From contig CM000152.2 of the NCBI GenBank assembly GCA_000004695.1, forward strand, positions 4,544,001 through 4,608,000: a stretch of DNA of 64,000 nucleotides. Reading direction: 5' to 3'. Below the pieces are notes generated by a model, which saw only the letters and a list, made by a program, of their open reading frames with translations, ran no database searches and was not told the DNA's origin. Positions 15,501 through 53,755 of the stretch are shown in pieces. The position numbers and the translations under genes are program-made. Source of the DNA: Dictyostelium discoideum (lineage: Eukaryota). Each line of letters opens with the position of its first letter. Positions within the stretch are counted from its first letter, which is position 1.

Positions 15501-15809
15501 AATCATATCAAACATTTATTGATATTTCTAGAAAACCATTCCAATATCTTAAAGGTCATTTTGTGAATGGCAAATATTATTTCCCAGGTTGTGGTTATAT
15601 TGATAATCTTTTAAAAATTTATGGTTCACAAGATTTTACAATTGCTTCAATGGAATTTAAATCACCATTAATTTTTACGGAAGGTGTTAGTCAATGTTTA
15701 CAAACAAACATTTTCCAAACTGGTAAATCAGAATTCAGAGTTAACTATCATTTTAAAGATACAAAATCAAATGAATGGATACAATCATCAGTTGCTCATT
15801 TCCAATTAT

Positions 15810-15879
<70 letters not shown>

Positions 15880-18800
15880 TAGTGACGATGGAAATAGTAC
15901 CAATAAAAAATATAATATTGAAGATATTATAAATAATAAATGCAATTTCACAAAATTATCAAACAATGAACTTTATGAAAATATTAAATCAAAAACTGGT
16001 ATATATTATACTGGAGAATTTAAAACAGTATCAAACCTTTATGTGGGTGAAAATTGTTCATTAGCAGAAATACCAATAACAATTAAATCTTATGAATCAT
16101 CATTTTTCTCACCATCAATATTAGATACTTGTTTACATGGTACAATTGGATTAATTGATGAAAAATCTCAAATTGTATTTGAAAGAGTTGAAGGATTCGA
16201 ATACCATTCTTCAAATATTCCATCACAAAATGAATTATCATCATTAAAACATACAAAGCTATATTCATTAACAGAATCATTCAAAAGGGTTGGAGATTCA
16301 TATTCAAGTTCAATTACAGTTATGTTGGAGGATGGTAGAGTTTTAATTGAATTTAAAAAGGTTGTATGTAAATCTTTAACTAATGTTATTGATTCATTAA
16401 TAATACAATCACCATTAAATGAATTATATTCAACATGTATGCAAACAATTGATTCACCAATTCAACCTTCTTTATCATCATCATCATTGATACAACTACT
16501 TGGCAACACCAATGAAAAAGTTAAAATTAATTATAGTCAATTCATTTCAAATCAATTGTATTACAATATAATTAAAAGATGTCCACAACTTAATATTGAA
16601 ACAATCAAATCAAAGAATATTGAACAGTTAAAAGAAAGTTACAACTCTTTAAATACTAAATATTCAAAATTATTCAAATCAGTATTTGAAACAATTCAAT
16701 CGATTGGTATAAATAATGAAGATAATAGTGAATTTAATGAAACAAACATTCAGCATTATAAAATCTTATTGAAATCAACTAGAATAATTGCAAAATTATT
16801 ATTCCCATTAAAAGATGATGATTTAAGTAAGGATACAGGACAATCATTATTTGAAAATGGAATTTTAGATGAATTCAATTCAAATTATTTTAATAATAAT
16901 AATCAAGTTATTAGCAACATAATTAAAGAATCACTTTTACCAATATTAAATGAAAAGATGGTATTCAGAATATTTGGATTTGGAGGTTTTGGATCATCAT
17001 TATCATCAGTTGTTTTAAATAAAATCAATGAATTACTTCAAGAATTTCCAAATAGCGAAATTGATATAGAATTCACTCATGCTGATATTTCATCATCATC
17101 ATCTTCTTTTGGTAGTAGTACACCAAATTTCAAACCAAATTTCCCACAAATAAATGAAAAAGTTCATATAATTTATAAATCATTAGATCTTGAAAAACAA
17201 TTATCAAGTGAACAAATGATTAAACCATCATATTATGATTTTGTAATCATGTCAAATGTTTTACATTTTACAAAAGATGTTAAATCGGTATTGGATCAAA
17301 TCCATCAAATTTTAAAACCAAATGGCCAAATTATATTAGTAGAACCTATTAATAAATCAATTTTACTTGATAATATATTTGGTATTTTCGATCAATGGTG
17401 GAGTTTTACAGATTTAAATATTAGAAGAAATGATTGTTATATTTCAAAAGATACTTGGAATAGCTTACTATTAGATTGTAATTTTGATAATAGTAAAGTT
17501 TTAATTTCAACAAAAGAAATTTCAAACTTTTATATAATTCAAACTCAAAAACCTTCAATTTCAAATTTAAATACAAATTCAACTACAAATGGTGATACAG
17601 TTATAATCTATGGTGATGAATTAAAATTTATAAGTTCTGATAGTAATAAAGAAATTAAAATTTCAAATATTCAACAATTTAATGAATTAATTGAAAAATC
17701 AATAATAACAGATGAATCAATTATTTACTTTACAAAATCAACAAATCAATTAACAGTAGATAATTTCAAATTAGTAACATTGGAATATATTCAAATCAAT
17801 CAAAAACTATTATCAAATAATTTAAAATGTAAACATGTATTGATTACATTAAATTCTGACAATATGAATTATTTATCAGCATCATTAATAGGAGCAACTA
17901 GATATTTTGAAGAATTTCCACAATTAAATTTATTCAATTTAGATTTCGATCAAAATTCAATAAATAATAATGAATTAGAAAAAACAATTAAATTGTTATT
18001 AGATTCAAACCAATTCATTCAAAAAGAATTCTTTATAAAGAATAGTAAAGTTTATTACGAAAGATATAAGAGAGAATTGAATTTAAATAATTTCTTTAAA
18101 GAATCCCAATCATTTTCAAATGAAAAGAACCAATTATACGCAAAATTATCACCAAATTTAGAATATATTTTAAAATCAAAAAAGGTTATAAAAGATGATG
18201 AAATTGAAGTAGAAGTAAAAGCAACAGGTATTAATTATAAAGATTATTTAATTTATTGTGGATTAGTATCAGCTGAATCAATTAATCGTTATGGTGATGT
18301 TAATAATCCTGAATTTGGTATTGAATACTCTGGTATTATTTCACGTATTGGTAATAATATAACAAATTTTGAAATTGGTGACCAAGTTTATGGTATGGGA
18401 TTAGATACAATTTCAACTCATGTAATTGTAAATCCAAACTATTGTTATCATAAACCAACAAATATCAGTTTTCAAGAAGCAGCATCAATACCATGTGTTT
18501 ATTTAACATCATTATGCTCAATATTTAATATTGGATGTTTAAGTGTTAGTGGTAATGAATCAATTTTAATTCATTCAGGTACAGGTGGTGTAGGATTATC
18601 AGCATTGAATATATTAAAATGGAAAGGTCATAAATCTCATGTATTTGTAACAGTAGGTTCAAAAGAAAAAGAAAAATACCTACTAGATACATATGGTGAT
18701 TTTATAACTGGAATTTATTCAACAAGAAATAAAAATTATGTTGAACAAATTAAATTAAAATTAAAACAATTAGGATCAAATAAGAATGGTGTAGATTTAA

Positions 18801-21616
18801 TATTGAATACATTATCAAGTGATTATATGGAATCAAATTTCAAATGTTTAAATACAAGTGGTAGAATTGTAGATTTATCTGTGACTCATTTAAATCATAA
18901 TGAATATATTAATAATAATAATTTTAAATTCAATTTTGGTTATCATAATTTTGAATTAACATTTATTAATAAATTTTTAATTCAAAAATCATTAAAGAAA
19001 ATTAAAATTGGAATTGAAAGCGGTGAATTAAAATTAATACCAATAACTGCATATTCAAACTCAAATGCAAAAGAAGCAATTGAATTTATTAATCAACGTA
19101 AACATATTGGTAAAATAGTTTTAAATAATGATAATGATATTTTAGATTCATTATTTAATAATCTTTCAAATGAAAGAAATTCAAAATTTACAACTCTTAA
19201 ACCAAATTATCAAATAAATAAAGACCATTTGGGTTCAAATATAATAGTTACAGGTCAATCTGGTATAATTTTAGAGATTTTAAAATGGATTGTTAAATTT
19301 TCAGAAAATGTTAAAAATATTATTATATTATCAAAATCATCTATGAAATGGGGTTTGGAATTATTAATTAAAAAGAATAAACATATAAATTTCAATTTTA
19401 AGAGTATTGATATTGGTGATTCAAATCAAGTTGATAAATCAATTGATGAAATTTTAAATGAAAATTCAATAACAAATATTGATTCAATTTTTCATTTTGC
19501 ATTCGAACATACTATATGTGATGTAAATGATATTGAAATTAATCATTTGACCAAATCTCATGGTGCAAAAACAATGGGTGCAATTAATTTACATAATCAA
19601 TCAATTAAAAGAAATTGGAAATTAAAACAATTTATTTTATCATCATCAGTAACATCGATGATTGGTTCAACTGATCAATGTACATATGTTTGTTCTAATA
19701 GATTATTGGATTCATTATCAAAGTATAGAAATTCTATTGGATTACCTTCAATATGTACAAACTATGGGTCAGTACAATCTGCAGGTATTGTTTCAAGAAA
19801 TAAATCTATTGAAAAATTATTAGATGCTCAAGGTTTAGATCCATTATCAATTAATATGATATTAGGTTCATTAGATTCACAAATTCAAAATGTAAACAAA
19901 TCAACAAATTTAATGGTATCACCGTTCAATTTTAATAATTTCTTTGAAACTTTTAAAAATCATTCAATGATTCATAAATTTGATTTCATTACAAATCTTT
20001 TAGAAAATAATAAATCAAAAAATAGTAATAATGGTAATACAGAAGGAGAATCAAATATTGATACATTATTTTTAAATAAAGTTTCAGAATTATTATCAAT
20101 GGAATTACCAAAGATTAATCAGGATTTGAAGTTGGTGGAGTATGGTTCAGATTCATTATTAATTGTTCAATTAAAAAATTGGATAGATAAAGAAATCTTT
20201 CCAAATTTAATTACAATTCAACAACTTCAAACTAATACAATTTCATCATCAATTAAAATCATTACAAATCAATTTAATTCTAAATCAACTGATGGTAGAA
20301 AAAAACAAAAACAAAATGGAATTAATGTTTCATCAAATAAATCATCATTACCAACTTTAGAATTTTGGAAAAATGAAACTAAACTTGATGAAGAAGAATT
20401 TAATTTTATATTAGATTCTTCAACCAAATCAAAAATAAATCATAAAGATCAATTAAAAGATAATGAAAAAAGAATTCTTTTAACTGGTAGTACTGGATTT
20501 TTAGGTGCATACCTACTTTGGCATTTAATTCAAATGGACAATTGTAAAATTGTTTATTGTTTATTAAGAAACAAAAAACTATTTAATAATCCATTAAATG
20601 ATATAATAGATAATTTAAAACATCATCAATTATATGATAAACAATTAAATGAAAGTCATTTATCAAAAATTGTTGCAGTTGTAGGTGATTTATCAAAAAT
20701 TAAATTTGGTTTATCAGATGATAATTATTCATTACTTTCAAATGATACAAATTTATTATTAAATTGTGGTGCTGATATTAATTTATCATCAAATTATGAA
20801 GAGTCAAAACAAGTAAATGTAGTTGGTACAAAAGAAATGATAAAAATATCATTAATTGGTAATATAAAACCAAAACCAATTATTACAATCTCATCATTTT
20901 CAGTATTTTATAATCAAAAGTTAAATCAAGAGTTTGATGAATCAATTGTTACACCAAAACTTGAAACGATTAATGATTTACCAGCAGGTTATATTCAAAG
21001 TAAAGTTATTTCAGAAATTATATTAACAGAAGCATCATCAAGATTCAATATACCATCAGCAATAATCAGAGCACCAAGTATTTTCTCAAATCCTGAAACT
21101 GGTATTGGTCATAGTGCTGATATCATTCAATTAATGTTACAATCTTGCTTTAAATTAGGTTATTACCCAAGTGGTAATGGAGTTGATTTTGATCTTCTTT
21201 GTTCACCAATAACATGGGTCGCTGATAATACTATTAAAATTATTTTTAATGATAATATTATTAACAACAAAGAACCTCAACAATTAACATCACCATTAAA
21301 ACCAAATATTTACAGTGTATATGGAAAAGTTTTAGATTTATTTGAGATTTTACAAGTATTAAAGAGTGATGAAGGTGGCAATTGTAAAGAAATTGAAATT
21401 AATCAATGGAAGCAAATGGTAATGGATTCAAAAGAAAAAGCATGTATTAAATTAAGAACTTTTCACACTTTACAATTTGATGGTAGAAATATTTTAAATA
21501 AAGGTCATGGAATTTCAAATAAACAAAAATCATATCTACAATCAATTGGATCTTTTGGAAATGGTGGTGAAATCACTAATCAAATGATATTCAAGAATGT
21601 TCAATCAAATAATTAA
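12537..21616 (+). CDS. Type I iterative highly reducing polyketide synthase, KS-AT-DH-cMT-ER-KR-ACP-R. Two exons: 12537..13195 and 13274..21616, about 3000 aa
   Basis: - KS: active site DTACSSS around 13090, and EAHGTGT.
- AT: GHSLGE around 14596.
- DH: HxxxGxxxxP-like [16 protein letters not shown].
- cMT: SAM motif IFGFGGFG and VLHFTKDV...[11 protein letters not shown].
- ER: [17 protein letters not shown].
- KR: [13 protein letters not shown] and YVCSN.
- ACP: EYGSDSLL.
- Terminal SDR-type thioester reductase: [14 protein letters not shown].
- Single intron GTATGT...AATAG immediately after the KS catalytic Cys region.
- An (AAT)23 poly-Asn insertion lies in the DH region. Confidence 0.9.
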
Positions 21617-21970: not shown

Positions 21971-22041
21971 TGCGTATGCTGGGAATCGAACCCAGTTCGC
22001 ATCCGTGGCAGGGATGCATCATACCACTAGACCACATACGC
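21971..22041 (-). tRNA. tRNA-Gly (anticodon GCC), 71 nt
   Basis: The reverse complement folds as a cloverleaf: acceptor GCGTATG/CATACGC, anticodon arm CATCC-CTGCCAC-GGATG, T arm CTGGG-TTCGATT-CCCAG, discriminator A. A B-box-like GTTCGGAATTC about 30-40 bp downstream (plus coordinates about 21931..21942) is consistent with a Dictyostelium ex-B box. Confidence 0.85.
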
Positions 22042-22430: not shown

Positions 22431-23820
22431 CTAACCCCTCTTTTAGAGACCGTGTAAAAAACTACAAATAAAATGAGATCTTGCATCTCAAGGAGAAGCA
22501 ACTAATAATTGCGTTATCCAATTCAAAAAAAAAAAGTATTTTCAAAAATAGCTTTGAATTAAAACCTTCACAGTTAATCCATTAAAGGAAATAAACAACA
22601 ATTATTAGTTTTACTTAATAATTATTTTAAAATATTGGTTGTAATTTCATTCTTCTAACATAAAATAGACTTTTTTTTATTTGAATCGGAATATAATATA
22701 TTTTTTTAAATAACATCATCACAATTTAAATTTAGTGTGATTAAAAATAAATTTGAGAGTCACTTTATTTTTTTTTTGGAAAATATCAAAATGCGAATTT
22801 AAATTTTAAAATGTAAAGTAGTAATTCTTTTTTTATTTATTTTGAATTACTTAAATAAAGAATTTTAATTTTAAAATATAGTGTATTATTATTATAATTA
22901 TTATTTTTTTTTAAAATATATTCAGTTTTAAATATGTTGGTATTTAAAATTAAATGAATTAAATATTGAAATTGTTGTTAATTATAAGAATTGGTCAAGG
23001 GTACTATATTCAGAAGATACAATAAGCTTGTCATGTTAATTCAAATTAATAATAAAGTATGTGTAAAATAAATATATGTAGTAATATTATCAGATATTTA
23101 AAATTAATGTTTTATTTGTTTTTATTTTTTAAGAATAAACACGATGACGCTATGAAATCAACAAAAAACAAATCGCATAAGTCGACTTCACCTTTAGAAA
23201 AGCGATGTGACAAAAATTCTAACAAAAGTTAAAACGAAACCTCAAATAACAAAACCATCACAATTATTTTTTTTTTTTTTTATTTTATTATAATATAATT
23301 AATCAGATTTTTTTTTTTTTTTTGATATAAATAAACTATTGTAGTATACAATTAGTATGTAATTTTTATTTATTTATTTTAGGTTTTTTAGTTTTTGTGA
23401 ATTTAAAATAGTATGTTATTTTAGATTAGGTAATTAATAATTAATTGGTGGTGTAATTGTTGGAATTGGTTCATTAGTGTTTATGCTCCATTCTTTTTTA
23501 AATTTTTTGATGGTTTCGGACCATTGGGTTTCTTTTTGAGTTTTTGTGAGGTTGTTTTTAATTGAGTATTGGTTAAAGTTTGTTTTTTTTTTTTTTTTTT
23601 TAATATTGGATTAACAAGATTGATATATGTCCATCTGTGTTAATACGAGTTTTATTTAATATTTATTTATAGGCTTATCATTTAAGCTGAAGGGTTATTT
23701 TAATCATATGAATTGATCAAAAGATATAATATTTGGGAGAGATGATTCTGGAATACAATAGTAATTAGCTGTTGTTTTTCTTAGCTTGATCGTTGAGGTG
23801 ATTAAAGTTTGATAAAGTAT

Positions 23821-23847
23821 TTAATTAATCAGATATCGAACCCATGA

Positions 23848-23881
<34 letters not shown>

Positions 23882-23930
23882 TAAAAGCGGTGTTAGAACC
23901 CATGACCTATAATAGATATTTACTAAAAAA
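23821..23930 (-). promoter_or_regulatory. Two ex-B-box-like elements downstream of tRNA-Arg, separated by a T28 tract
   Basis: On the minus strand the elements read AGGTCATGGGTTCTAACACC and GGTCATGGGTTCGATATCTG. Both approximate the pol III B-box GGTTCGANTCC, as expected for Dictyostelium external B boxes. Confidence 0.5.
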
Positions 23931-23933
23931 ATT

Positions 23934-24006
23934 CACCCATTGTGGGTCTCGATCCCACGACCTGCAGCTTAGAAGGCTGCCGCAATTCCAACTTTGCTAA
24001 ACGGGC
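23934..24006 (-). tRNA. tRNA-Arg (anticodon UCU), 73 nt
   Basis: The reverse complement is GCCCGTT-TA-GCAA-AGTTGGAA-TTGC-G-GCAGC-CTTCTAA-GCTGC-AGGTC-GTGGG-ATCGAGA-CCCAC-AATGGGT-G. All four stems pair, with two G-U wobble pairs in the acceptor stem. The anticodon loop is CTTCTAA. Confidence 0.8.
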
Positions 24007-24052
24007 TTTGATATTTTTTCATTTTTAATATCTTTAATAACTACTTATTTGA

Positions 24053-25316
24053 GAGTAAGAGAAAAAACATCAACAACAACACTTTTTTTATTTGATTATT
24101 TCATTTTTCATATAAAAAAAAGACTTAAAAAAAATAAAATAAAATACACTTAGAGTAAACTACTTTATTTCTTTATTTTATTGTAATTTATTTTTTTCTT
24201 TTTTTTGAAAATTTTGCGAAGCAAAATTGAAAAAAAAAAGGAAAAAATAATCAGTAAGAGAAAAAACATCAACAACAACACTTTTTTTATTTGATTATTT
24301 CATTTTTCATATAAAAAAAAGACTTAAAAAAAATAAAATAAAATACACTTAGAGTAAACTACTTTATTTCTTTATTTTATTGTAATTTATTTTTTTCTTT
24401 TTTTTGAAAATTTTGCGAAGCAAAATTGAAAAAAAAAAGGAAAAAATAATCAGTAAGAGAAAAATCATCAACAACAACACTTTTTTTATTTGATTATTTC
24501 ATTTTTCAGATAAAAAAAAGACTTAAAAAAAATAAAATAAAATACACTTAGAGTAAACTACTTTATTTCTTTATTTTAGTGTAATTTATTTTTTTCTTTT
24601 TTTTGAAAATTTTGCGAAGCAAAATTGAAAAAAAAAAGGAAAAAATAATCAGTAAGAGAAAAAACATCAACAACAACACTTTTTTTATTTGATTATTTCA
24701 TTTTTCATATAAAAAAAAGACTTAAAAAAAATAAAATAAAATACACTTAGAGTAAACTACTTTATTTCTTTATTTTATTGTAATTTATTTTTTTCTTTTT
24801 TTTGAAAATTTTGCGAAGCAAAATTGAAAAAAAAAAGGAAAAAATAATCAGTAAGAGAAAAAACATCAACAACAACACTTTTTTTATTTGATTATTTCAT
24901 TTTTCATATAAAAAAAAGACTTAAAAAAAATAAAATAAAATACACTTAGAGTAAACTACTTTATTTCTTTATTTTATTGTAATTTATTTTTTTCTTTTTT
25001 TTGAAAATTTTGCGAAGCAAAATTGAAAAAAAAAAGGAAAAAATAATCAGTAAGAGAAAAAACATCAACAACAACACTTTTTTTATTTGATTATTTCATT
25101 TTTCATATAAAAAAAAGACTTAAAAAAAATAAAATAAAATACACTTAGAGTAAACTACTTTATTTCTTTATTTTATTGTAATTTATTTTTTTCTTTTTTT
25201 TGAAAATTTTGCGAAGCAAAATTGAAAAAAAAAGGAAAAAATAATCAGTAAGAGAAAAAACATCAACAACAACACTTTTTTTATTTGATTATTTCATTTT
25301 TCATATAAAAAAAAGA

Positions 25317-25380
<64 letters not shown>
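24053..25380. repeat. Tandem satellite: 7 copies of a roughly 195-201 bp unit (last copy truncated), terminating in an A60 tract
   Basis: The unit core (agtaagagaaaaaacatcaacaacaac...ttgattatttcatttttcatataaaaaaaagac...gaaaattttgcgaagcaaaattgaaaaaaaaaaggaaaaaataatc) recurs with starts near 24053, 24253, 24454, 24650, 24849, 25047 and 25243. Copies differ by a few substitutions. Confidence 0.9.
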
Positions 25381-25383
<3 letters not shown>

Positions 25384-25659
25384 CCGAAAACATTCTTTCA
25401 GGGAATTTCCAGAATTTTAAATTTTTAAAGCCGAATAAAGATTTTAAAGAAAAAAAAAAGAAATGAATAAATTGGCAAATACAATAATGACAGTGTTAGA
25501 GACTCAAAACTAAATTAATTTAAAGTTAGTATGAGCTCAACAACGTAACAAATTCGCGCATCTCCATGTAAAAATATTTCATTTAATTTTTATTTTTATT
25601 TTTTAATTTTTTAATTTTTTATTTTTTCAGTCAAAAAATAAAAAATTAAATTAAAAAAA

Positions 25660-26418
25660 CACAGCAAAGAAAAATGCACCTTTAAAGCAAATTTAAAGAA
25701 AAGTTGATTTAAATTGGATTTAAATTGAATTTAAAGCCGCGTTTAAAAAATTCATTTTTAAGGTAATTTTTAAGGTAATTTTTAAGATATTTAAAAATGC
25801 CTTTAAAATTTGCTTTAAAATAAATTTTTAAGCAATTTTAAAGGTGATTTTAAAGGTGATTTTAAAGGTGATTTTTAAGGTAATTTTTAAGATAATTTTT
25901 AAGATATTTAAAAATACCTTTAAAATTTATTTTAAATTAATTTTAAATAGGATTTAAAGTAGATTAAAAGTAGATTTAAAGTGAATTTAAATTTCCTTTA
26001 AACATAAATTTAAGGTTTTTAATAAAAAAGATCTAATTTTAGCACAAAAAAATGGGGATAAAATATTCTATCATTTTTAAATTTTTCATCAAAGCAATCA
26101 AATGGTGTAATGGTTGTTGAGACTCCCCTTTGATAGAGGGTCGGCGGATCGAATCCCTTTTGGGTAATTTTTGAAAAATTAAAAAAAAATTTTAAAAAAT
26201 TTATCCGTTAAATAACGGATTCGAACTCAGGACCTCGCTTTTAAAGCCATTAAAAAGGTAATTTTAAAGGTAATTTTAAAGGTAATTTTTAAGGTGATTT
26301 TAAAGTAACCTTAAAAATTACCTTTAAAATTACCTTTAAAATTGCTTTAATTCAGGACTTTAAAGCAAATTTAAATTTAATTTAAAGCGAATTTAAAGGT
26401 GGTTTTTTCTTTGCTGTG
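25660..26418. mobile_element. 759-bp terminal-inverted-repeat element (non-autonomous DNA transposon-like), copy 1, nested inside the Skipper 5' LTR
   Basis: - Perfect 15-bp terminal inverted repeats: CACAGCAAAGAAAAA ... TTTTTCTTTGCTGTG.
- No ORF.
- Interior is built from short direct repeats (GGTAATTTTTAAG / GGTGATTTTAAAG / TTTAAAG).
- Central A-box-like (TGGTGTAATGG) and B-box-like (GGATCGAATCC; GAGTTCGAATCCG) tRNA-derived motifs.
- The LTR sequence resumes exactly after the insertion, by comparison with the intact 3' LTR. Confidence 0.75.
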
Positions 26419-26954
26419 AAATTAAATTAAATTAAAATTTAAAAAAATAATAAAAATTCTGATTTTTCGGTTTAGTTGGAATAACGCCCTTACTTTTAAT
26501 TATCTCTTTTATGTATGTTTACTTTTATGATATTAGTCTTTCACTCTTTCTATCCTTCATATTAAAAAACATTACTTTAAAGATTGGACTGTTTGATAAA
26601 AGATTGAACAAATGTGACAATGGATTGAAGATTAGTGTGAGTGACTTTTACACTTTTTTTTTTCTAATTTTAACATAAAACAAATACATTAAAACAAATA
26701 ATTAGATACAATCCTTATATTTCGTATACAATGACACCTCATGATGAAGAAGTCGACTCTTCAGATTAGAGGAATAACAGTAGTATTTAAAACAAAATAA
26801 AAATGCATTACAATGGCCCTTCTGTTTGCAAGATTAACGCTGTACTGCTTAGGCGGTACAACGACACTTCCTACTCACATTGTAAACATGCATCTTTTAT
26901 AAAGTAATATAAAACAAGATTGTATCAATTAATTTAATAATAATGCTCAAATAC

Positions 26955-27230
26955 AAAGACACCACAATATAAATTATTAGTGGAATAACAGTTAAACAAA
27001 GACACCACAATATAAATTATTAGTGGAATAACAGTTAAATAAAGACACCACAATATAAATTATTAGTGGAATAACAGTTAAATAAAGACACCACAATATA
27101 AATTATTAGTGGAATAACAGTTATATTGATGCATTGTTATAATTAAAATAATTTAAGATAATATTTATTATCAATTAAATAATATAAAGACACCACAATA
27201 AAAATATATTAGTGGAATAACAGTTAACAT
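26955..27230 (+). repeat. Tandem 41-bp repeats (5 adjacent copies plus one diverged copy) in the 5' untranslated leader of the Skipper-like element
   Basis: The unit aaagacaccacaatataaattattagtggaataacagttaa recurs head-to-tail from about 26955 to 27165. A further copy lies at 27187..27230. Confidence 0.85.
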
Positions 27231-27378
27231 ATATTAATACTTATATTTAATTATTTAATTAAAAATTAAATTAAATTAAATTAAATAAATTAAATTAAAT
27301 TATATAATTAAATTATGTAAATTAAATTAAAAAATTAAATTATAAAATTAAATTATATTTAATAAATTTTATATATAA

Positions 27379-28542
27379 TTGTTGGTGAAAGTCATGTCAT
27401 CAACTACTACTCCTTCAAAGAAAGCCATCCGTAAAGCCAAAGTGTCTTCCACCGCCAAACGTGCCGCTGAAGTGACAACCGCCTCCGATGATGCTATTAC
27501 TGTTCAAGTAAAATCAAAAAAGACTCTTCGTCCCACTGAAGTTGATGATGAAATTTATTCAACTGAAAGCACTGATGTATCCGACGTCGAAGTCAGAGAG
27601 AAAGTGCCAAAGAAATCAAAGACCAATTCCATTGAAGCTAAAACCATTGACGCTTTAAAAAATGCTGCCACTGCTGTCATCTTCATGAATCTCTTTACCA
27701 TCCACTGCTCCCAGAATGGTGTTGAACCAACCTTGAAGACCATTATGGACAATGGTGCTGCATCAAATGAATTATTTCAATTGCTTCAACCTACCCACAA
27801 TGAATCAGTTAAGAACAACGATAAAATTGAAGGTGAAACATTGAAGAAGCTAATCCACCGTAACTTTAGATCCAAGACTTTGGTTCCATTCAAAACTGAC
27901 TACGAAGCTGCCAACACTAAAGTAGTCGAAGCTATTAACCATCGTAACTGCTACTCAGCCCAAGATGTTATAAAAAACATCGAAGCCATTATGAGTTACC
28001 ACAATGTAATTAATCCGGTGTATCTCATCCATGGTACTGCTGAAGTTCAATTAGAGTATCTAAGATCAATTTTAGATAATAATATCCTTGCTTTGTTAAA
28101 GATGGTCGTACCAGACTGGTTACAAACTGATGTTGCAATCAAACTCAACACTCAAACCGATATCACCGAGTGTCGTGAAGCCATCACCGAGTTGGTTCTT
28201 AACAATGCTGATAAGTTCTCGAGAAGAAGACCTTCCGATTCCGCATCGAATACTGATGAGAAGTTTCCATTAAAAAAGAATCATGCTACTCCAAATCATA
28301 ACTCTCATAACAGGAATTCCTTTGATGCTCAAGCTGATAAGATTAGAGCTGCAATATTACCCGAAATAAGAAAAGACTCTAAGGTAGACCTCAAAAAGAT
28401 AAGAAGCAGTTTCATCGTTTACCGTCAAAGCAAAGGCTACTGTCTCAATTGTGGTAAATCAAATCACTCCACATCTACATGTAGAATTGATCCGGTCGAT
28501 GCCAAAGCCAATCCAGGTCCATCAGCCAAAAAGCAACAATGA
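27379..28542 (+). CDS. Skipper-like Gag (387 aa) with a C-terminal CCHC zinc knuckle
   Basis: The motif CLNCGKSNHSTSTC (CX2CX4HX4C) lies near the C-terminus. The ORF ends in TGA at 28540..28542. Codon usage is less AT-biased than host genes. Confidence 0.85.
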   Translation: MLVKVMSSTTTPSKKAIRKAKVSSTAKRAAEVTTASDDAITVQVKSKKTLRPTEVDDEIYSTESTDVSDVEVREKVPKKSKTNSIEAKTIDALKNAATAVIFMNLFTIHCSQNGVEPTLKTIMDNGAASNELFQLLQPTHNESVKNNDKIEGETLKKLIHRNFRSKTLVPFKTDYEAANTKVVEAINHRNCYSAQDVIKNIEAIMSYHNVINPVYLIHGTAEVQLEYLRSILDNNILALLKMVVPDWLQTDVAIKLNTQTDITECREAITELVLNNADKFSRRRPSDSASNTDEKFPLKKNHATPNHNSHNRNSFDAQADKIRAAILPEIRKDSKVDLKKIRSSFIVYRQSKGYCLNCGKSNHSTSTCRIDPVDAKANPGPSAKKQQ

Positions 28543-31500
28543 CTCGATGAAGGTGATGAGTCCAAGTCAAAGATTTTAAATAAAAATTATAAAATTTCTC
28601 AATATCATCACCTTGAGGATAATGATTACCCAGTGAACAAAGATTCACTTTATACTCTTAACTCTTTTTATAATCAAAACATTGTTAAACAGTTACATCA
28701 ACAAAGCCAGCAACATGATGTTCATAAAAACATCAACAAACTTAAAGAATACGTCAAAGACTCATATGGTATAAAACTAGTTCCTGATACAACCGTTCCA
28801 ATTCCAAAAGCTGTTGAATCAGAGATGAAGTATAAACCACAGAAGATTGAATTTAATACTCCAACAGAGTTAACAAATGTTCAAGATAAAAACTATACTG
28901 TAAACATATTCAATCGTCCAAAGATATTAAATTCTAGTAAAGAATTAATTAACGATGAAGAAGATGAATTGCTTTACACAATTAAATTCGATAAAGAAAC
29001 AAACAAACCAATCATCTCATTATTACATAGTACTGGTACAAGTGATACTGCTCTCATTCCGACTCTCAAATGTTTAATCGTTCCAAACAGAGAAAACATG
29101 GATAAACCCAAGATTATAATTAACTCTCATTCCAAAGAAAAACAATTCAAATTAATTCTCGATACTGGAAGTAATGTTAGTTTAATCAATAAGAGGTTGA
29201 TTTCAAAAGATATGAAGAACCACGTTCACAAAACGAAAGCCAAGATTAACTTCCCGCTACTAGACGTCAAAGAAGAGTTTGTTGAACAAATCAATATACA
29301 AGTTAACAATGAAATTCATAACTTCTTTATTATAGAATTGGATATCATTGATGTACTTTTCGGTAATGATATCCTTAAGGACTCTATCATTAACCAAAAA
29401 GATAAAATAATCAAGTTGAATAATAGTACATACAAAATTAATTATCAACAGTCGAATCAATTACATTGTAATGTAAAAGCTCCAAGAAAACATGTTACCG
29501 TATCCAATGATAATCAGTCACAGTCACATAATCTACTAGATGATGATGAAGATATCAAAGAACAAGTTACAAAGTTTGTTGAAAGCATCCCATCACAACT
29601 TTGTGATATACTGGTTAAAACTAATCCAGAAGAAGAAGAGATACAAGCAGTACGTGATTTCATTAATGATTCATTCGAAGATGTTATAGTAGATAAACTT
29701 CCTGATATTCCAGATCAGATTAACAATTCCAGAAGAGGTAATATCATACATAATATCATAATAAAGAAAGATCAAGATGTTGAACCAACAAAGAAACAAA
29801 TCTATTATTCAACAGATGATCATAAGAGACATGTCGAAGAAATGGTTCTCAAATTTATAGATTTAGGTATTATCAAAAGATCAGAATCAAATTACTCATC
29901 TCCAATCATGTTATTAAAGAAGAGAGATTCATGGCGTGTAGTCCACGACTATCGTCAACTAAATAAAGTCACTGTTAGAGACGATCATCCATTCACTCCG
30001 GTTGATAGTCTTTTAAATCAATGTAAAGATTCAAAGCTTTTCTCAAAGTTTGACATGATTATGGGTTATTTCCAAGTGTTAATTAATCCAGAACACGCAA
30101 AGTACACCGCTTTCATTACACATATTGGTAAATTTGAATATACTAGAATGCCACAAGGTTTAGTCAACTCTCCATCCACATTCGCCAGATTGATGGTCGA
30201 AATATTTGGAAAAATCAAAAGTTTATTACAATACTTTGATGATCTTTTGGTTCATTCAAAACTCGACTACATGGTACATTTCATTGAAATCATTAGAATG
30301 CTTCTATATTGTAGAAAGTACCTATTATTCATTTCAAGAGAAAAGAGTGAAATGTTAAAGACTGAAGTTGATTTCCTTGGTTTTCACATTCATAAAGATG
30401 GTATATCTCCAAGAGCTGCAAAGGTTAGAGCTATCTCTGAGTTACCTGAACCAAGAAACGCCAAAGAAGCTGAAGCTGCATTAGGTCTTTTTGGATTCTT
30501 CAGGAGACACATTGAAAATTACGCTGAAAAAACCTATCACCTTTCCAAAGAATCAAAAGGAAAAAACAAGAAAACACTTTCTGATGAATCACTCAAAGAA
30601 TTCAATAATCTAAAGAAAGAGTTTGAAGGTGAAAATATTGTCGCTATTCCAATTGAACAAGATAACTCCATACCAATAGATATCGAAAAGGTTAAAGCAT
30701 CAACAGACATGCCAATCCATTCAGATAATAATAATCTAAACAATGGTAGTTTTCACTTGTATTGTGATGTTAGTGATAAAGCATTATCAGGTGTATTATA
30801 TCAAATTCAAGGTAATAAATTCAAAGTCATTTGGTTTCACAGTAGAAAACTTACTGATACTCAAAAGAGGTACAGCATAGGTGATAGAGAGTTCCTTTCA
30901 ATCATTGATTCTCTAAAGAAGTTTCAACATTTATTAATTGGTAAAAAGGTTTCAATCTACACTGATCACCAAAATCTTACATATATTATCAATAAGTCAA
31001 ACGATAAACCGTTCACAAAGAGACAAGATAATTATATGAAATATATTAAAGAATTTGATTATGAATTAAGACATATAAGTGGTAAAAAGAATGGTATAGC
31101 TGATTTTTTATCTCGTAAATATGATAATTTCCAATGGGATGAATCGTTTTTAAATAAAATTAAGGAAGAACAAATCAATTCTCAATGGCTATTAGAGATG
31201 AAAAAGAATCCAAATTTATGCATTGAAGAAATTAATGATATCTGTTACCTTAGTGAAGATGGGTTCAAGAAATTAATCATCATAGATAAAGAAACTATTC
31301 ATACCGTCATTAGAGAATATCACGATACCAAATATAGTGGTCATCACGCTTTAGATATCACATACAATAATATAAGACAAGATTACTATTTCAAAGAAAT
31401 GTTTTCTATTATCAAGAGGTACATAAAGTCTTGTGCAACATGTCAATTGAACATTAACCGTAAAGATAATGGTATACTCCAAAGTTTAGAAATTCCCTTT

Positions 31501-32826
31501 GAAGTTTGGAGAGATATATCAATCGATTTCTTATCGCTACCAAAAACAATGTATGCAATAAACGGATTTACAGTTGAAGTCGATCAAGTTTGTGTCATTG
31601 TTTGTAGATTATCTAAAATGGTTCATATAGTTCCATGTCATAAGACAATAGATGCCCAACATACCGTTCAATTATTGTTGAATCATGTGTTCAGACTCCA
31701 TGGTTATCCAAGAACAATCGTCTCCGATAGAGATCCAAGATTCCTTTCAGAAATATGGGAGAGATGGGCAAAGACGATGGATTCTAAACTCAAGATGACT
31801 GTGGCACACAGAGCACAAGCTGATGGTCAAACTGAAAGAATGAATAGAGAAATTATTAGAATATTAACTAAAGCCTCAACAGAGTATGGGGAGAATTGGT
31901 CAGATATCATTCCACTTATTGAATTTGCAATGAACTCATCAATGAGCAAGTCTACAAAGATGTCACCATTCCAAATCGTTTATGGATTCAATCCACCAAC
32001 TCCCGTTAATCATTTCAATTCATTAACAAAGACTCGTATACCAATGAGCAACATCAAAAAGATTGTCCGTGATAATATACTAGATGCTCAAATCAATGCT
32101 CAAAAGTATTACAACCGAGGTCGTGGTGATGTTATCTTCGTAGTCGGAGAAAAGGTGATGGTTAAAAGAAAATTCTTCCAAACTAATCTTTCAAAAGATC
32201 TAATCTCTCACAAACTTGAATCCAAGAATTGTGGACCATTCATAATCACTGCCGTTCATGGTAATAATGTAACACTCGATTTAGTAGGTTATCCAAAGAA
32301 ACACAATGTGTTCAACAAAGATCAAATCGTAAAACTATACGAGGACAGTGAGTGGTTAAGAGAAGAGATATCGATGCCGGAACCTGAGGAGATGGACGAA
32401 GCAAGTTACGAAGTTGAAAGTATTCTCAATCACGATAAAGTCAAAAAGATGTACCTAGTGAAGTTCAAAGGTTACCCAGAACCTGAATGGATCAAAGAAG
32501 TCGATACAGACTGTGAAGAGTTAGTCAGAGAGTATTGGAATAACGTGCAGAAGAAACAATTGAACTCAAGAAGAGAAAGAGAGAATGTAACTACAGAAGC
32601 CGTTGAGCCAATTGTGTCACCTCCACTCTCCCAAGAAGTTCAAAGTTCTCAAACATTGCAACCAATTACTCCAAGACAACAAAACTCCATCTCAAATCAA
32701 AGAAACCAATCAAAGAAAAGAAAATCAAGAAATCAAAATACTTCAAGTGATGATGATGAACTTGATCTTAGTTTACAAATTAAAACAACTAGATCAGGAA
32801 GAAAAGTTACACCCAAGAGTTTATAG
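28543..32826 (+). CDS. Skipper-like Pol polyprotein (PR-RT-RNaseH-IN-chromodomain), in the same frame as gag directly after its UGA. Has no ATG of its own (the ORF track start at 28633 is GTG)
   Basis: - Protease LILDTGSNVSL.
- RT motif LQYFDDLLVHS.
- Integrase zinc finger HHALD...CATCQ.
- DDE core (DFLSLP...VDQVCVIVCRLSKMVHIVPCHK...).
- Chromodomain YEVESILNHDKVKKMYLVKFKGYPEPEWIKEVD.
- The frame is open from 28543 onward. Confidence 0.85.
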   Translation, partial: LDEGDESKSKILNKNYKISQYHHLEDNDYPVNKDSLYTLNSFYNQNIVKQLHQQSQQHDVHKNINKLKEYVKDSYGIKLVPDTTVPIPKAVESEMKYKPQKIEFNTPTELTNVQDKNYTVNIFNRPKILNSSKELINDEEDELLYTIKFDKETNKPIISLLHSTGTSDTALIPTLKCLIVPNRENMDKPKIIINSHSKEKQFKLILDTGSNVSLINKRLISKDMKNHVHKTKAKINFPLLDVKEEFVEQINIQVNNEIHNFFIIELDIIDVLFGNDILKDSIINQKDKIIKLNNSTYKINYQQSNQLHCNVKAPRKHVTVSNDNQSQSHNLLDDDEDIKEQVTKFVESIPSQLCDILVKTNPEEEEIQAVRDFINDSFEDVIVDKLPDIPDQINNSRRGNIIHNIIIKKDQDVEPTKKQIYYSTDDHKRHVEEMVLKFIDLGIIKRSESNYSSPIMLLKKRDSWRVVHDYRQLNKVTVRDDHPFTPVDSLLNQCKDSKLFSKFDMIMGYFQVLINPEHAKYTAFITHIGKFEYTRMPQGLVNSPSTFARLMVEIFGKIKSLLQYFDDLLVHSKLDYMVHFIEIIRMLLYCRKYLLFISREKSEMLKTEVDFLGFHIHKDGISPRAAKVRAISELPEPRNAKEAEAALGLFGFFRRHIENYAEKTYHLSKESKGKNKKTLSDESLKEFNNLKKEFEGENIVAIPIEQDNSIPIDIEKVKASTDMPIHSDNNNLNNGSFHLYCDVSDKALSGVLYQIQGNKFKVIWFHSRKLTDTQKRYSIGDREFLSIIDSLKKFQHLLIGKKVSIYTDHQNLTYIINKSNDKPFTKRQDNYMKYIKEFDYELRHISGKKNGIADFLSRKYDNFQWDESFLNKIKEEQINSQWLLEMKKNPNLCIEEINDICYLSEDGFKKLIIIDKETIHTVIREYHDTKYSGHHALDITYNNIRQDYYFKEMFSIIKRYIKSCATCQLNINRKDNGILQSLEIPFEVWRDISIDFLSLPKTMYAINGFTVEVDQVCVIVCRLSKMVHIVPCHKTIDAQHTVQLLLNHVFRLHGYPRTIVSDRDPRFLSEIWERWAKTMDSKLKMTVAHRAQADGQTERMNREIIRILTKASTEYGENWSDIIPLIEFAMNSSMSKSTKMSPFQIVYGFNPPTPVNHFNSLTKTRIPMSNIKKIVRDNILDAQINAQKYYNRGRGDVIFVVGEKVMVKRKFFQTNLSKDLISHKLESKNCGPFIITAVHGNNVTLDLVGYPKKHNVFNKDQIVKLYEDSEWLREEISMPEPEEMDEASYEVESILNHDKVKKMYLVKFKGYPEPEWIKEVDTDCEELVREYWNNVQKKQLNSRRERENVTTEAVEPIVSPPLSQEVQSSQTLQPITPRQQNSISNQRNQSKKRKSRNQNTSSDDDELDLSLQIKTTRSGRKVTPKSL

Positions 32827-33302
32827 TCCACCTCTGAGCCATAGCTAGCCTAAAGAAGGAAGGGGAAGGTGTTAGAGACTCAAAACTAAATTAATTTAAA
32901 GTTAGTATGAGCTCAACAACGTAACAAATTCGCGCATCTCCATGTAAAAATATTTCATTTAATTTTTATTTTTATTTTTTAATTTTTTAATTTTTTATTT
33001 TTTCAGTCAAAAAATAAAAAATTAAATTAAAAAAAATTAAATTAAATTAAAATTTAAAAAAATAATAAAAATTCTGATTTTTCGGTTTAGTTGGAATAAC
33101 GCCCTTACTTTTAATTATCTCTTTTATGTATGTTTACTTTTATGATATTAGTCTTTCACTCTTTCTATCCTTCATATTAAAAAACATTACTTTAAAGATT
33201 GGACTGTTTGATAAAAGATTGAACAAATGTGACAATGGATTGAAGATTAGTGTGAGTGACTTTTACAGACAGAATCAACAGAAACATTGGCAGATAAAAT
33301 CA

Positions 33303-34060
33303 CACAGCAAAGAAAAATGCACCTTTAAAGCAAATTTAAAGAAAAGTTGATTTAAATTGGATTTAAATTGAATTTAAAGCCGCGTTTAAAAAATTCATTT
33401 TTAAGGTAATTTTTAAGGTAATTTTTAAGATATTTAAAAATGCCTTTAAAATTTGCTTTAAAATAATTTTTTAAGCAATTTTAAAGGTGATTTTAAAGGT
33501 GATTTTAAAGGTGATTTTTAAGGTAATTTTTAAGATAATTTTTAAGATATTTAAAAATACCTTTAAAATTTATTTTAAATTAATTTTAAATAGGATTTAA
33601 AGTAGATTTAAAGTAGATTTAAAGTGAATTTAAATTTCCTTTAAACATAAATTTAAGGTTTTTAATAAAAAAGATCTAATTTTAGAACAAAAAAATGGGG
33701 ATAAAATATTCTATCATTTTTAAATTTTCATCAAAGCAATCAAATGGTGTAATGGTTGATGAGACTACCCTTTAATAGAGGGTCGGGGGATCGAATCCCT
33801 TTTGGTAATTTTTGAAAAATTAAAAAAAAAAATTTTAAAAAATTTATCCGTTAAATAACGGCTTCGAACTCAGGACCTCGCTTTTAAAGCGATTAAAAAG
33901 GTAATTTTAAAGGTAATTTTAAAGGTAATTTTTAAGGTGATTTTAAAGTAACCTTAAAAATTACCTTTAAAATTACCTTTAAAATTGCTTTAATTCAGGA
34001 CTTTAAAGCAAATTTAAATTTAATTTAAAGCGAATTTAAAGGTGGTTTTTTCTTCGCTGT
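33303..34060. mobile_element. 759-bp terminal-inverted-repeat element, copy 2 (about 97% identical to copy 1). Lies 35 bp downstream of the Skipper 3' LTR and abuts a non-LTR retroelement fragment
   Basis: Same termini (CACAGCAAAGAAAAATGCACCTTTAAAG ... AAAGGTGGTTTTTTCTTCGCTGTG) and same internal organisation as copy 1. It differs by scattered substitutions and indels. Confidence 0.75.
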
Positions 34061-34730
34061 GATGACATAAAGAAACTGGAGAACGTTAATGCCAACATGT
34101 TATTCAAAGGGGACAGGTGGGCTATCTCAAAAGAAAGGAGCAGAAGAGACTATGAAATTGGAGGCCTGGAACTCTGGAATAGGGACTTAGCATGGAGATA
34201 TCTACTCAAGGCACTTCCAAAACACCATGGGGAGAATTGCCACTCATGTAAAGAAGAAGAATCGTCTATGCACATCTTCTTCGAATGCAAATCAATAAAA
34301 CAGAATATCGACTCAATCTATCAAAAGGTCTGTAAAGACTCCAACAACACTTACCACGGTCCATGGAGCGAAAAAGTTCTCGGAAAACTACTCACACCAT
34401 TCTCATCAAATCTGATAGGAGCCATTATGGAATCGATATGGTACAGAAGAAATCAAATAAAATTCAACGATAACACTACAATAATAACAGAGAACCAAAT
34501 AATTCATAAAATCAAAAAAGCGAGAGATGCCGAATGGGATAGAACAAGAAAGATAGTAGAAAAACAACTACGTCAAGAACTAAGATGCACTGATAACCGA
34601 GAGTCAATCAATCGGACCGCATCAATAAAAAGAAGACTCGAAAAATTCAGCCACAACTGGAACTCGAAACTCATGACCATAAACATCCCGGAACACTTCA
34701 TACCATACTGCTCATATAACACCAACTACT

Positions 34731-34764
<34 letters not shown>

Positions 34765-34856
34765 ATAACAATAATAATAATAATAATAATAATATAATAA
34801 TATAATAATAATAATATAATAATAATAATAATAATAATAAAAATAAGAATAACAAG

Positions 34857-34904
<48 letters not shown>

Positions 34905-42991: not shown

Positions 42992-45900
42992 TTAACGATT
43001 GAGCCATCTAACTTTTTTGAAACCCCAGAAACTTAAACCAACAAAAATGAAAATGTAACCAAAGATAGCAGCAATATCGATATATCTCATGAATTTATGG
43101 AAACCATAAGTTAACATGAAATCATCACCATTTGTAATTGGACAATAATATTTAATCGCTATTTGAACACCATTTTCAATGATTGGAATTGGTACAGCAC
43201 CTTTATTATTTGTACAAACAAATGTTAAACCTGTGAATTCATTGGTACAAGATGCTTCCAAAGGATACCTGAGCCAGTCTAAATAATGACACCAATAATA
43301 TGCAGATGGATAATTTGGTCTTGCAATGACGAAACCACCAAATAATGTTGCCAATGATAAACCAATACCACATATTGTTGATGCCATAACTTCATTTGGT
43401 AAGCAAACCGCCAGACATAATGCAAACGCATCATACATAATATAGGTGATAATGAAAATGAATAGACAATACCAAAATTTAGATGAATGTCGACCGGAAT
43501 CCAGACCAGCAATCCAAAATGTTGGAATAATATAAAGAATACCAGTTGATAGAATAAATGGATACGATGTTAATACATATGATATCATATATGCCGTTGA
43601 ATGATAGAAACCTGCGGTAACTTCACGATAGAATACACCTCTTTCTAATACTGTTGTTGGAATATTACCAATTGCGACCATACCGGCAAAAAGGAACGAA
43701 AAGAAGAGTAATGAAACACGAGATCTTGCATCCTTTTGTTCATAGTCCATACGAACAAATAGTGTACCTAATAGGACTGCCAACAATATTGAACGAAGAC
43801 AATTTGAAACGAATATTGCTGGACGCCTCAACCGAGATAACCAACTTCTCATACAAAGTGCGCGGAATTGTGTCATCCATGATGAAGCAAACCTTGAATC
43901 ATACGTTTTAACTACAAAGTCATCAGGTATTAATTGTCCTTCCATAATTTCATATTCTTTTTTACAAATATTAGATTCAAAATATGCCTTCTTTGCATCA
44001 AGATGTTCTTGTTCACCATTTGGACCTTCAACCATTTTACCTTCATCAGCTAATGTCATTACGAAATCAGCAGGATTAATATGTGGTTTAATATGCATAC
44101 CTAATTTATCACAATAATCTAAAATCACACTTGACTGATTACCCAATGGCCCAAAATAAATTGTTTCACCACCTTTTTTTAGTAATAATAATTGGTCAAA
44201 GAATTCGAAAATTGCAGCAGATGGTTGATGTACTGTACAAATTACAGTTCTATTCATTACTTTGGCAATTTTATTAACTACATCAATTACTTTAAATGCG
44301 TCACCAGAGTCTAAACCACTTGTTGGTTCATCAAGGAAAAGAATTTCTGGATTTGAAGCTAATTCAACACCAATATTTACTCTTTTTCTTTGCGATACTG
44401 ATAAACCATTTCCAAGTACACCAATCTTTAAATCTTTAATACTTGATAGACTTAAAACTTCAACGATCTTATCAACAAAGATCTCTCTTTCTTCTTTAGT
44501 AACTTCAGGTGGTAGTCTACATCTTGCACTGAATGCAATCGCTTCTCTAACTGTTTGTGTTGGTGGTAAAACATCCATTTGTTCAACATATGCTCTTATT
44601 CTATTTGTAAATTCAGAAGGTGGTTTACCATTAATTAAAATTTCACCAGTGATATGGCCACCAGTTTTTCTTTGAGCTAAAACATCTAATAATGTTGATT
44701 TACCTGCACCTGATGGTCCCATTAATGCTAACATCTATAATAAAAAAATAAAATTAATAATTAGTAATAAATAAATTAAACAAAAGAATATTTTTAAAAA
44801 ACATACTTGACCAGGTTTAACATAACCATCAATATCAGTTAATAGTTGTAATCTTTGACTTTTCTTTTTCTTTGGATTGTCTGGATCATCAGCTTTTACA
44901 TCAACAGCATAACAAAGTTTTTTAAATTGTAAATAACTACCAGTTTCTGAACTTATATCTTTTTGAGAGGTACTTATTGGTTTTTGTTTTGAATGATTAC
45001 CATTTTTTGAAGGAGTATTAACCATTGGTGATAAATTTGTTAATGGGGAATTAACCATTGGTGATAGAGTCGAAGGTGTTTTAACTTTTCTTCTTTTTAT
45101 ATTATTACCGGATCCTGATAAATTATTATTATTATTGTAATTGGGAGATGTTAATGGTGATTTCATATCAATTACAGTATCATCGTCATAGTTTGAAATA
45201 TCAGCATTATCATCATTATCATCACTAACTCTTTCTAATGCTTCAGTAGTAACTTTACAATTTGGCTCTTCATCTTCTTTACAAACAATAACTTTTTTCT
45301 TTTTCTTTAATTTCTTTACTGCTAATTTGGATTTTTTATCTTCAAAATTTAAATATTTCAAAGCAAAGAAACAAACTGAATAAAAGAATACAATATAAGC
45401 ACCTAAAATTGCATAAACAATCCATTTGAAATAATCTGGGTTATTAATACCAAATGCATCCATAATTTGTTCACCAGATGTATATTGACAAACTTGATTA
45501 CCACCGAAACCTTCTGGATATGGTAATAGATTTTGAGGAGTTCTTGGTGGTATTAATTCAGAATCTTTACAACCATACGCTTGATATGTAAATTCATTAA
45601 TTGATAAACCTTGGAAAATCCATGTATAGGGTGATATATAATATAACCAAATCCACCAACCTCCAATATCATTCTTTGGTGCCGTGAAACCTGAAAATAA
45701 TAACCAAATTGAAAGTATTACTGATGCTGTTACATTTGCAATTTCAATTGTTGGTGAAATTGCTGCACACATTTTAGCAAATGATAATGATAAATTATCA
45801 GTTCTAAAAAAAAAAAAAAAAAATTAGGATTTATAAAAATAAATACTTGAATAAATTAATTAAAATAAAAATACATACATAAATAATAAAATCATAAAAT

Positions 45901-46532: not shown

Positions 46533-46566
<34 letters not shown>

Positions 46567-47572: not shown

Positions 47573-47652
<80 letters not shown>

Positions 47653-50565: not shown

Positions 50566-50597
<32 letters not shown>

Positions 50598-53500: not shown

Positions 53501-53668
53501 TTCATCATTTTCATGATTTGGCATTAATTCATCTAATGGAATTGGGAAATATTCATCATCACCATCATCTTCACCCTCATGCTCTTTTGCAATTTGATAT
53601 ACACTCTTTTCATCATCACTATCATAATTACTTTCTTCATCCTTATGTTTTCTACTACTACTAATTAA

Positions 53669-53755
<87 letters not shown>

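Follow-up and report, generated by a model that had tools for sequence, protein, structure and literature searches.

How does a retrotransposon make its polymerase when a stop codon stands between gag and pol, and is the copy that carries this arrangement still intact? These questions are raised by a locus on chromosome 3 of Dictyostelium discoideum, for which a stretch of 64,000 nucleotides was analyzed (GCA_000004695.1, contig CM000152.2, positions 4,544,001 to 4,608,000; hereafter the window). The original prediction, made from the letters of the window, described a recently inserted, Skipper-like long terminal repeat (LTR) retrotransposon that looked intact and transposition-competent and whose pol was expressed only through readthrough of a UGA codon. 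We re-read its structural statements directly on the window sequence. The feature is very probably a full-length copy of Skipper-1, a Ty3/gypsy chromovirus, with a gag-UGA-pol readthrough layout. A full-length, coding-intact element of the Skipper family was thus confirmed; neither a frameshift nor another element family was found.

The listing of open reading frames (ORFs) contained two long ORFs in the same frame, 27379-28542 and 28633-32826. Translation of 27379-32850 in this one frame revealed a single internal stop, TGA at 28540-28542, followed by C (28543), and then the terminal TAG at 32824. This is the arrangement that had been predicted, and no frameshift is needed because gag and pol share one frame. 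The gag frame was open as described, but its predicted length of 388 codons counts an upstream TTG plus the stop; from the ATG at 27394, gag encodes 382 amino acids (aa). A 382-aa gene call stands at the gag position in a second, long-read assembly (L004, GCA_054883475.1). Gag matched no Pfam family, and exact-sequence look-ups of the window gag and of protein P0001 gave no match. Pol was uninterrupted over 1427 codons, close to the predicted 1430, in the expected order of protease (PR), reverse transcriptase (RT), RNase H (RNH), integrase (IN) and chromodomain (Table 1). The HHCC and DDE residues of the integrase and the GPF motif were legible in the translation, and the chromodomain (SYEVESIL...LVKFKGYPEPEW) showed, by eye, Y, F and Y at the three aromatic cage positions. 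The D. purpureum relative P0020 has a precomputed PF00385 match. The listed ORF start at 28633 is GTG, as had been noted. The statement that pol has no ATG of its own was wrong, since an in-frame ATG occurs at codon 95 (28825) and is used by the AX4 gene model.

To characterize the gag-pol junction, related loci from D. discoideum, D. cf. discoideum, D. firmibasis and D. purpureum were compared. The in-frame UGA was kept in 7/8 junctions, representing four lineages. The junction reads CAA CAA UGA CUC in the D. discoideum window and second assembly and in three D. cf. discoideum copies, AAA UGA UGC in two D. firmibasis copies, and AGC UGA CUA in one D. purpureum copy (L001), which carries a deletion through the zinc knuckle and provides the junction only, not a full gag. 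UUA replaces the stop in one degenerate D. cf. discoideum copy that lies in a transposon nest. Gag identity between D. discoideum and D. firmibasis is about 23%, and the stop is still at the matching place. We further compared the 94 codons that separate the UGA from the first AUG of pol with those of L003, a D. cf. discoideum element 86% identical to the window. The proportion of synonymous differences (pS) was 0.54 and that of non-synonymous differences (pN) 0.10, giving a pN/pS of 0.20. A YHH(L/I)ED block after the stop was conserved as far as D. firmibasis.

A stem-loop was predicted right after the UGA (Table 1). Its outer CUCG/…GAGG pairing together with AGGUGAUGA/UCAUCACCU (stem arms 28551-28559 and 28605-28613) comprises 13 bp and closes a loop of about 45 nt. 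Between the window and L003, 0/26 stem nucleotides were changed compared to 10/49 others (Fisher p = 0.0099). In D. firmibasis, a stem of 9 bp stands at the matching place; the YHH codons again form its 3' arm, whereas its 5' arm is different. The context AA-UGA-C(U) is readthrough-permissive in the fission-yeast elements Tj1/Tosmo (PMC10085805). The same paper names Skipper (Leng et al. 1998) as one of the retroelements with gag-pol stop-codon readthrough, so that, as far as this listing goes, the mechanism put forward by the original prediction is already published. The shared frame, the 7/8 conserved UGA, the pN/pS of 0.20 and the stem beside the stop all back stop suppression rather than frameshifting. 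Judged by sequence comparison, readthrough at UGA 28540 is well supported by the conservation of the UGA and by the coding constraint downstream of it, and the stem may act as a stimulator.

We propose that the genomic RNA would be translated into Gag, terminating at UGA 28540, and that in a minority of ribosomes the UGA would be decoded by a near-cognate tRNA, giving an in-frame Gag-Pol polyprotein. Four enzymatic parts (protease, reverse transcriptase, RNase H and integrase) would be joined in this product by an apparently canonical chromodomain (group I, HP1-like), and the protease would then cleave it. Readthrough would probably be favoured by the neighbouring nucleotides, AA ahead of the stop and C/CU behind it, together with the stem that starts directly 3' of the UGA. 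Reverse transcription is presumably primed at the polypyrimidine tract and not at a tRNA primer binding site.

Similar junctions are known from other elements. The fission-yeast elements Tj1/Tosmo/Tcry (GAA UGA CU) have gag and pol in one frame with one stop, and share AA-UGA-CU with the window (PMC10085805). One frame and one stop are likewise found in murine leukaemia virus (MuLV; UAG plus pseudoknot) and in Candida Tca2. RNA structure near the stop is a further likeness to MuLV, whereas the window stem is a predicted long-range hairpin with a loop of about 45 nt and not a demonstrated pseudoknot. The window junction also resembles alphavirus-type readthrough, which combines UGA-C with an extended stem.

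The best match of pol in the protein search was DDB_G0281535 of D. discoideum AX4 (chromosome 3, a contig of 6,357,299 bp), with many Skipper-like copies of other Dictyostelium assemblies ranking below it. All 1322/1322 aligned residues were identical, the sole difference being 11 residues that the database model lacks; because of this identity, the window is taken as the AX4 reference sequence at the locus. The window block VMVKRKFFQTNLSKDLISHKLESKNCGPFIITAV was identical at 34/34 positions to the Dd_Skipper-1 GPY/F row of Spaller 2016, Fig. S1 (VMV-KRKFFQTN-LSKDLIS-HKLESKNCGPFIITAV; PMC5006619), and it differs from the Dd_Skipper-2 row of that figure. The description as Skipper-like therefore holds for the family but falls short of the element, which is rather Dd Skipper-1 of AX4 itself. 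Published Dd Skipper-1 has a 6,998-bp consensus, 390-bp LTRs and two ORFs, namely a CX2CX4HX4C gag and an ORF2 with PR-RT-RNH-IN-chromodomain (PMC5006619). The window element is 7,015 bp long without a 759-bp element nested in its 5' LTR, and its LTR measures 398 bp. The census of Dd Skipper-1 counted 60 copies, mostly fragments, with 2 full-length copies whose ORFs are intact (PMC5006619).

Both predicted LTRs were present at 398 bp each, the 5' LTR being split by the insert. The comparison of the LTRs, which had been suggested for dating the insertion, was run by exact comparison and repeat finding. Reassembled from a 166-nt prefix and a 234-nt suffix that overlap by 2 nt, the 5' LTR was identical to the 3' LTR at 398/398 positions, with 0 mismatches. 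The perfect 5-bp target-site duplication (TSD) GACAG was also confirmed; the flanks read ...AATACAATAATGACAG before and AATCAACAGAAAC... after the insertion point, and recurrence of GACAG by chance at a given position is about 2.6e-4 at the composition of the window, which is AT-rich (GC range 14-38%). Skipper is marked by a polypyrimidine tract, bearing a characteristic C, at the site where a primer binding site would be expected (PMC5006619), and the window element has such a tract there.

Table 1. Positions of the retrotransposon, its parts and its neighbours in the window.
Feature	Position	Strand	Remarks
LTR retrotransposon, whole	25494-33267	+	7,774 bp
TSD GACAG, left / right copies	25489-25493 / 33268-33272	+	read directly
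5' LTR, split by nested element	25494-26652	+	LTR parts 25494-25659 plus 26419-26652
Foldback (terminal inverted repeat) element, non-autonomous	25660-26418	.	759 bp; termini CACAGCAAAGAAAAA...TTTTTCTTTGCTGTG
Polypyrimidine tract CTTTTTTTTTTC	26653-26664	+	directly after 5' LTR; no TGG primer binding site
43-bp tandem repeats in 5' leader	26912-27169	+	about 4-5 units; repeat finding
gag ORF	27394-28542	+	382 aa plus UGA; frame open from 27379
gag zinc knuckle CX2CX4HX4C	28441-28482	+	CLNCGKSNHSTSTC; motif read from translation
In-frame UGA, gag/pol boundary	28540-28542	+	context CAA CAA UGA CUC
Predicted stem-loop right after UGA	28543-28617	+	minimum free energy -21.2 kcal/mol, z = -2.0
pol ORF	28543-32826	+	1427 codons plus TAG; gag frame
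pol protease motif DTGS	29161-29172	+	
pol RT	29917-30390	+	YFDD 30232-30243; RVT_1 8.9e-25
pol RNase H	30748-31056	+	RT_RNaseH 8.5e-26
pol IN zinc domain	31282-31452	+	Integrase_H2C2 3e-15
pol IN core	31588-31812	+	rve 2.8e-7
pol GPY/F-SH3	32146-32331	+	SH3_Tf2-1 1.6e-3, weak
pol chromodomain	32404-32541	+	Pfam Chromo 1.1e-3
Polypurine tract AAAGAAGGAAGGGGAAGG	32852-32869	+	abuts 3' LTR
3' LTR	32870-33267	+	398 bp, TG...CA, uninterrupted
Second foldback copy	33303-34061		98% identical; 35 bp past 3' LTR, inside TRE-like ORF
Left part of putative TRE5-like host	24054-25488	+	199-bp tandem repeat, then ORF start ATG 25463
Right part of putative TRE5-like host	33273-34900	+	ORF continuation, ends in A-rich tail; holds second foldback copy
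Polyketide synthase gene	12387-21616		upstream of element
tRNA-Gly	21971-22041	-	
tRNA-Arg(UCU)	23934-24006	-	

The Skipper-1 copy is coding-intact but not pristine, because a foldback element landed in its 5' LTR. The insertion lies after LTR position 166 and is accompanied by a 2-bp AA duplication. The foldback element has terminal inverted repeats of about 30 bp and arms of 12-bp TTTAAAGGTAAT-type repeats, which are predicted to form perfect hairpins. The hairpin arms gave sub-threshold matches to microRNA (miRNA) precursors in Rfam, and the core (about 26094-26165) is tRNA-like and was called by neither ARAGORN nor Rfam. The two foldback copies of the locus differ at 14 positions, 5 of which fall in the tRNA-like core of about 60 nt; one copy has the AA duplication, and the other is without a visible TSD. 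The family may be thug-type; thug-S is known to yield miRNAs. As the 3' LTR carries no insert, the foldback element entered after Skipper had integrated. A long T-run and then CAGTC lie about 30 nt before position 166, and AATAAA motifs lie beyond it. In Dictyostelium, T-runs precede transcription start sites (PMC6161686). The foldback insert may lie in the R region of the LTR, since the T-run/CAGTC upstream resembles a start site and AATAAA follows downstream. The predicted transposition competence was not upheld, the 5' LTR being broken near the likely transcription start; from its sequence, the activity of this copy appears uncertain and its competence doubtful.

The second, independent assembly is probably that of the lab strain AX2-214 (bioRxiv 10.1101/2025.08.01.668227), to judge by its 99.6% identity and its chromosome-level status; it has the same insertion, TSD, length of 7,774 bp, nested element and LTR sequence. 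D. discoideum mutates at the extremely low rate of about 3e-11 per site and generation. At this rate, the lack of any difference over 398 bp bounds the age at only about 1e8 generations, and identical LTRs date the insertion poorly. Of the claim of a recent insertion, the identity of the LTRs stood, but the age bound is loose and the insertion with its nested element is already present in the second assembly; 'recent' is therefore weakly constrained.

Several observations weigh against the reading of the feature as an intact readthrough element. UGA-CU was found in three lineages, and D. firmibasis has UGA-U (UGA-UG) instead. The D. purpureum junction showed no clear equivalent of the stem, and the role of the stem is suggestive only, because its invariance is confounded with conserved residues (EGDE, YHH). 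The Pfam Chromo match reached 19.3 bits, under the gathering score of 25.1, and no protease family was matched by Pfam, so that the protease was recognized by its DTGS motif alone. The interruption of the 5' LTR makes competence uncertain. Finally, the window and the second assembly differ by 17 substitutions, all in 27328-30384, and part of the seemingly pristine sequence may derive from another Skipper copy.

Alternative accounts of pol were weighed against readthrough. Pol would be made apart from Gag if translation started at the codon-95 AUG (28825) or if a spliced mRNA lacked the stop, and two gene models are drawn in this way: the AX4 model DDB_G0281535 starts at Met95, and P0002, a model from D. 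cf. discoideum, joins gag to pol via a 96-nt 'intron' across the UGA. We consider this very unlikely. Initiation at Met95 is disfavoured because the preceding 94 codons are translated in frame, as indicated by purifying selection (pN/pS 0.20) and by the YHH(L/I)ED block shared with D. firmibasis; moreover, scanning ribosomes must cross many gag AUGs. Splicing across the stop was rejected, since the AG acceptor of P0002 is absent from the window (TTATAAAATTTC vs TTATAAGATTTC), meaning that the intron is not conserved, and the segment looks coding-constrained rather than AT-rich and intron-like. The AX4 model also drops 11 codons inside pol, a typical gene-finder artefact. A reading of the element as a dead copy, with pol never translated behind an inactivating UGA mutation or a genuine terminator, would suit a family in which most of about 60 genomic copies are fragments (PMC5006619), but it is extremely unlikely given the UGA at the matching codon in four lineages, the 1427 codons that stay open after it in sequence of 22-32% GC where stops are frequent, the presence of all catalytic motifs, and a layout equal to the described two-ORF organisation of Skipper-1 (PMC5006619). 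Readthrough with insertion of a standard amino acid is also to be set against decoding of the UGA as selenocysteine. Selenoproteins do occur in D. discoideum. This reading is barely conceivable, however, and was rejected: no selenocysteine insertion sequence (SECIS) or other relevant Rfam match was found in 23800-34800 at E<=1, the UGA lies in the non-conserved gag/pol linker, and the arrangement fits the readthrough layout of retroelements.

The differences between the two assemblies allow other explanations of the pristine appearance. The 17 substitutions comprise 12 synonymous, 4 non-synonymous and 1 non-coding change. The LTRs and the 3' half of the element show 0 differences, and the unique flank shows 2 over about 13 kb. 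The outgroup state is found in the window at some of the sites and in the second assembly at others, and both haplotypes keep gag, the UGA and pol open. The presence of two Skipper-1 haplotypes at one locus reflects either ectopic gene conversion or repeat mis-assembly/polishing. In the latter case, the pristine look would partly be an assembly product, with reads of other Skipper copies merged into a composite. The confinement of the sites to 27328-30384, the ratio of 12 synonymous to 4 non-synonymous changes, which fits functional copies and not sequencing errors, and the distribution of outgroup states are consistent with a composite; on the other hand, the assemblies agree exactly on site, TSD, length, nested element and LTRs, gag and pol are open in both, and an equal pattern would arise without assembly error if ectopic gene conversion had occurred in one strain lineage. 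We regard a composite as unlikely, though deserving some weight. Quite unlikely, taken jointly, are a very recent ectopic gene conversion between Skipper-1 copies at this arm locus and, separately, an action of foldback hairpin transcripts as a trigger of RNA interference (RNAi). In the second case, with the foldback about 30 nt past the likely transcription start, transcripts of one of only two coding-intact Skipper-1 copies might carry a long perfect hairpin, and the locus would be a built-in trigger for RNAi control of Skipper.

A full-length Skipper-1 copy with gag-UGA-pol readthrough layout, the preferred reading, was compared with the known LTR elements. With Skipper-1 (Leng et al. 1998; PMC5006619) the window element has species, protein, length, LTRs, ORF order and polypyrimidine tract in common. 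It differs in the 759-bp foldback in the 5' LTR and in its site, which is a TRE5-like host near a tRNA gene and not a DIRS-1 cluster. The 1998 description by Leng and colleagues is said to comprise a separate pro ORF, a +1 frameshift before pol and a pseudoknot after the stop. Unlike that account, the window copy has no frameshift, in line with the two-ORF description of PMC5006619. Two LTR families, Skipper and DGLT-A, are present in D. discoideum (PMC5633606). Skipper-2 (formerly DGLT-P) is a related chromovirus family, and both it and the window element are found near tRNA genes. It has 208-bp LTRs and a diverged chromodomain without the first and third cage aromatics, whereas the window element keeps Y/F/Y at these positions; in D. 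discoideum, all Skipper-2 copies are degenerate and located 8-23 bp downstream of tRNA genes. Skipper-2 or a tRNA-targeted insertion was ruled out by the 398-bp LTR, the GPY/F block and the 1,488 bp to tRNA-Arg on the 5' side. DGLT-A shares the Ty3/gypsy order RT-RNH-IN and a zinc-knuckle gag with the window element. It is set apart by its single ORF, the lack of a chromodomain, LTRs of 265 bp and a TGG primer binding site; its insertions lie 13-33 bp upstream of tRNA genes, and none of its copies is full-length.

The second assembly places the locus at 4,647,936-4,669,555 of a 6,429,748-bp chromosome, that is, on the arm of chromosome 3. The predicted neighbourhood of tRNA and polyketide synthase genes, away from a DIRS cluster, was found. 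Self-BLAST of the 64-kb window revealed no further Skipper, LTR, DIRS or foldback copy, only low-complexity noise. The suggestion that an arm location is unusual does not hold, since Skipper accounts for about 10% of centromeric DNA and also for about 0.9% of the remaining genome (PMC2665215). In contrast to the window copy, the D. cf. discoideum Skipper copies L006 and L007 are fragmented and interleaved with genes for RVT_1 plus Phage_integrase; their setting is a DIRS-like, centromere-type nest, and one junction there has TTA.

Upstream of the element, 6.5 nearly identical units of a 199-bp tandem repeat (24054-25337) begin exactly 48 bp upstream of tRNA-Arg. TRE5 elements insert 40-54 bp upstream of tRNA genes (PMC5911963), and the repeat resembles the 5' module of a TRE5-type non-LTR element in multimerised form. 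Rejoining of 25463-25493, 33273-33302 and 34062-34735 gave a 244-aa ORF whose frame continues over both insertion points. Homologous to this ORF are fragments of non-LTR RTs (P0112, 'Reverse transcriptase z...', and P0114, with RVT_1), and it corresponds to the RT C-terminus plus the zinc-binding region of a non-LTR element. We infer that Skipper-1 is nested in a remnant beside tRNA-Arg that would be of TRE5 type. When the ORF as rebuilt for the time before the insertion was used as a query, all matches were further copies of the non-LTR fragment, and a homologue search with the neighbouring 539-aa ORF, aimed at orthologous loci and an empty site in wild isolates, gave no scored match. P0111/L005, the best candidate, was rejected as the orthologous locus, its neighbours being MCM5, Arp2/3 and a Na/H-exchanger.

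The element, its two-ORF layout, polypyrimidine site, copy census and presumed readthrough are already published, and the copy is in the reference genome. The analysis shows the anatomy of the element, the family to which it belongs, the conserved UGA and the constraint on the protein right after the stop; readthrough itself, a stimulatory role of the stem and activity of this copy are inferences. The coding-intact arm copy with its coordinates is a possible template for the tagged-element retrotransposition assays called for in PMC5633606, and the comparative data define a putative readthrough cassette, AA-UGA-CUC plus the predicted stem 28543-28617. The public gene models at the Skipper locus are artefacts that dodge the stop. 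The 'intron' of 33 nt removed by the AX4 model encodes GNIIHNIIIKK (11 codons), and the 96-nt pseudo-intron of D. cf. discoideum (L003 7183-7280) leads to a predicted gag-pol fusion of 1804 aa.

Downstream of the element, the window contains ORFs without annotation, a tandem pair of ABCG transporter genes and a WD40 gene. At the end of the window (62001-64000), beside tRNA-Leu(UAA) at 62291-62373, GC rises to 37.6% with a strong skew; the ORF 62693-63943 in this segment has no Pfam match and may be another tRNA-associated retroelement. The two ABCG-type (PDR-like) genes, at 42992-47754 and 48822-53860 on the minus strand, are paralogous and have an alike exon-like ORF pattern, which looks like a local duplication.

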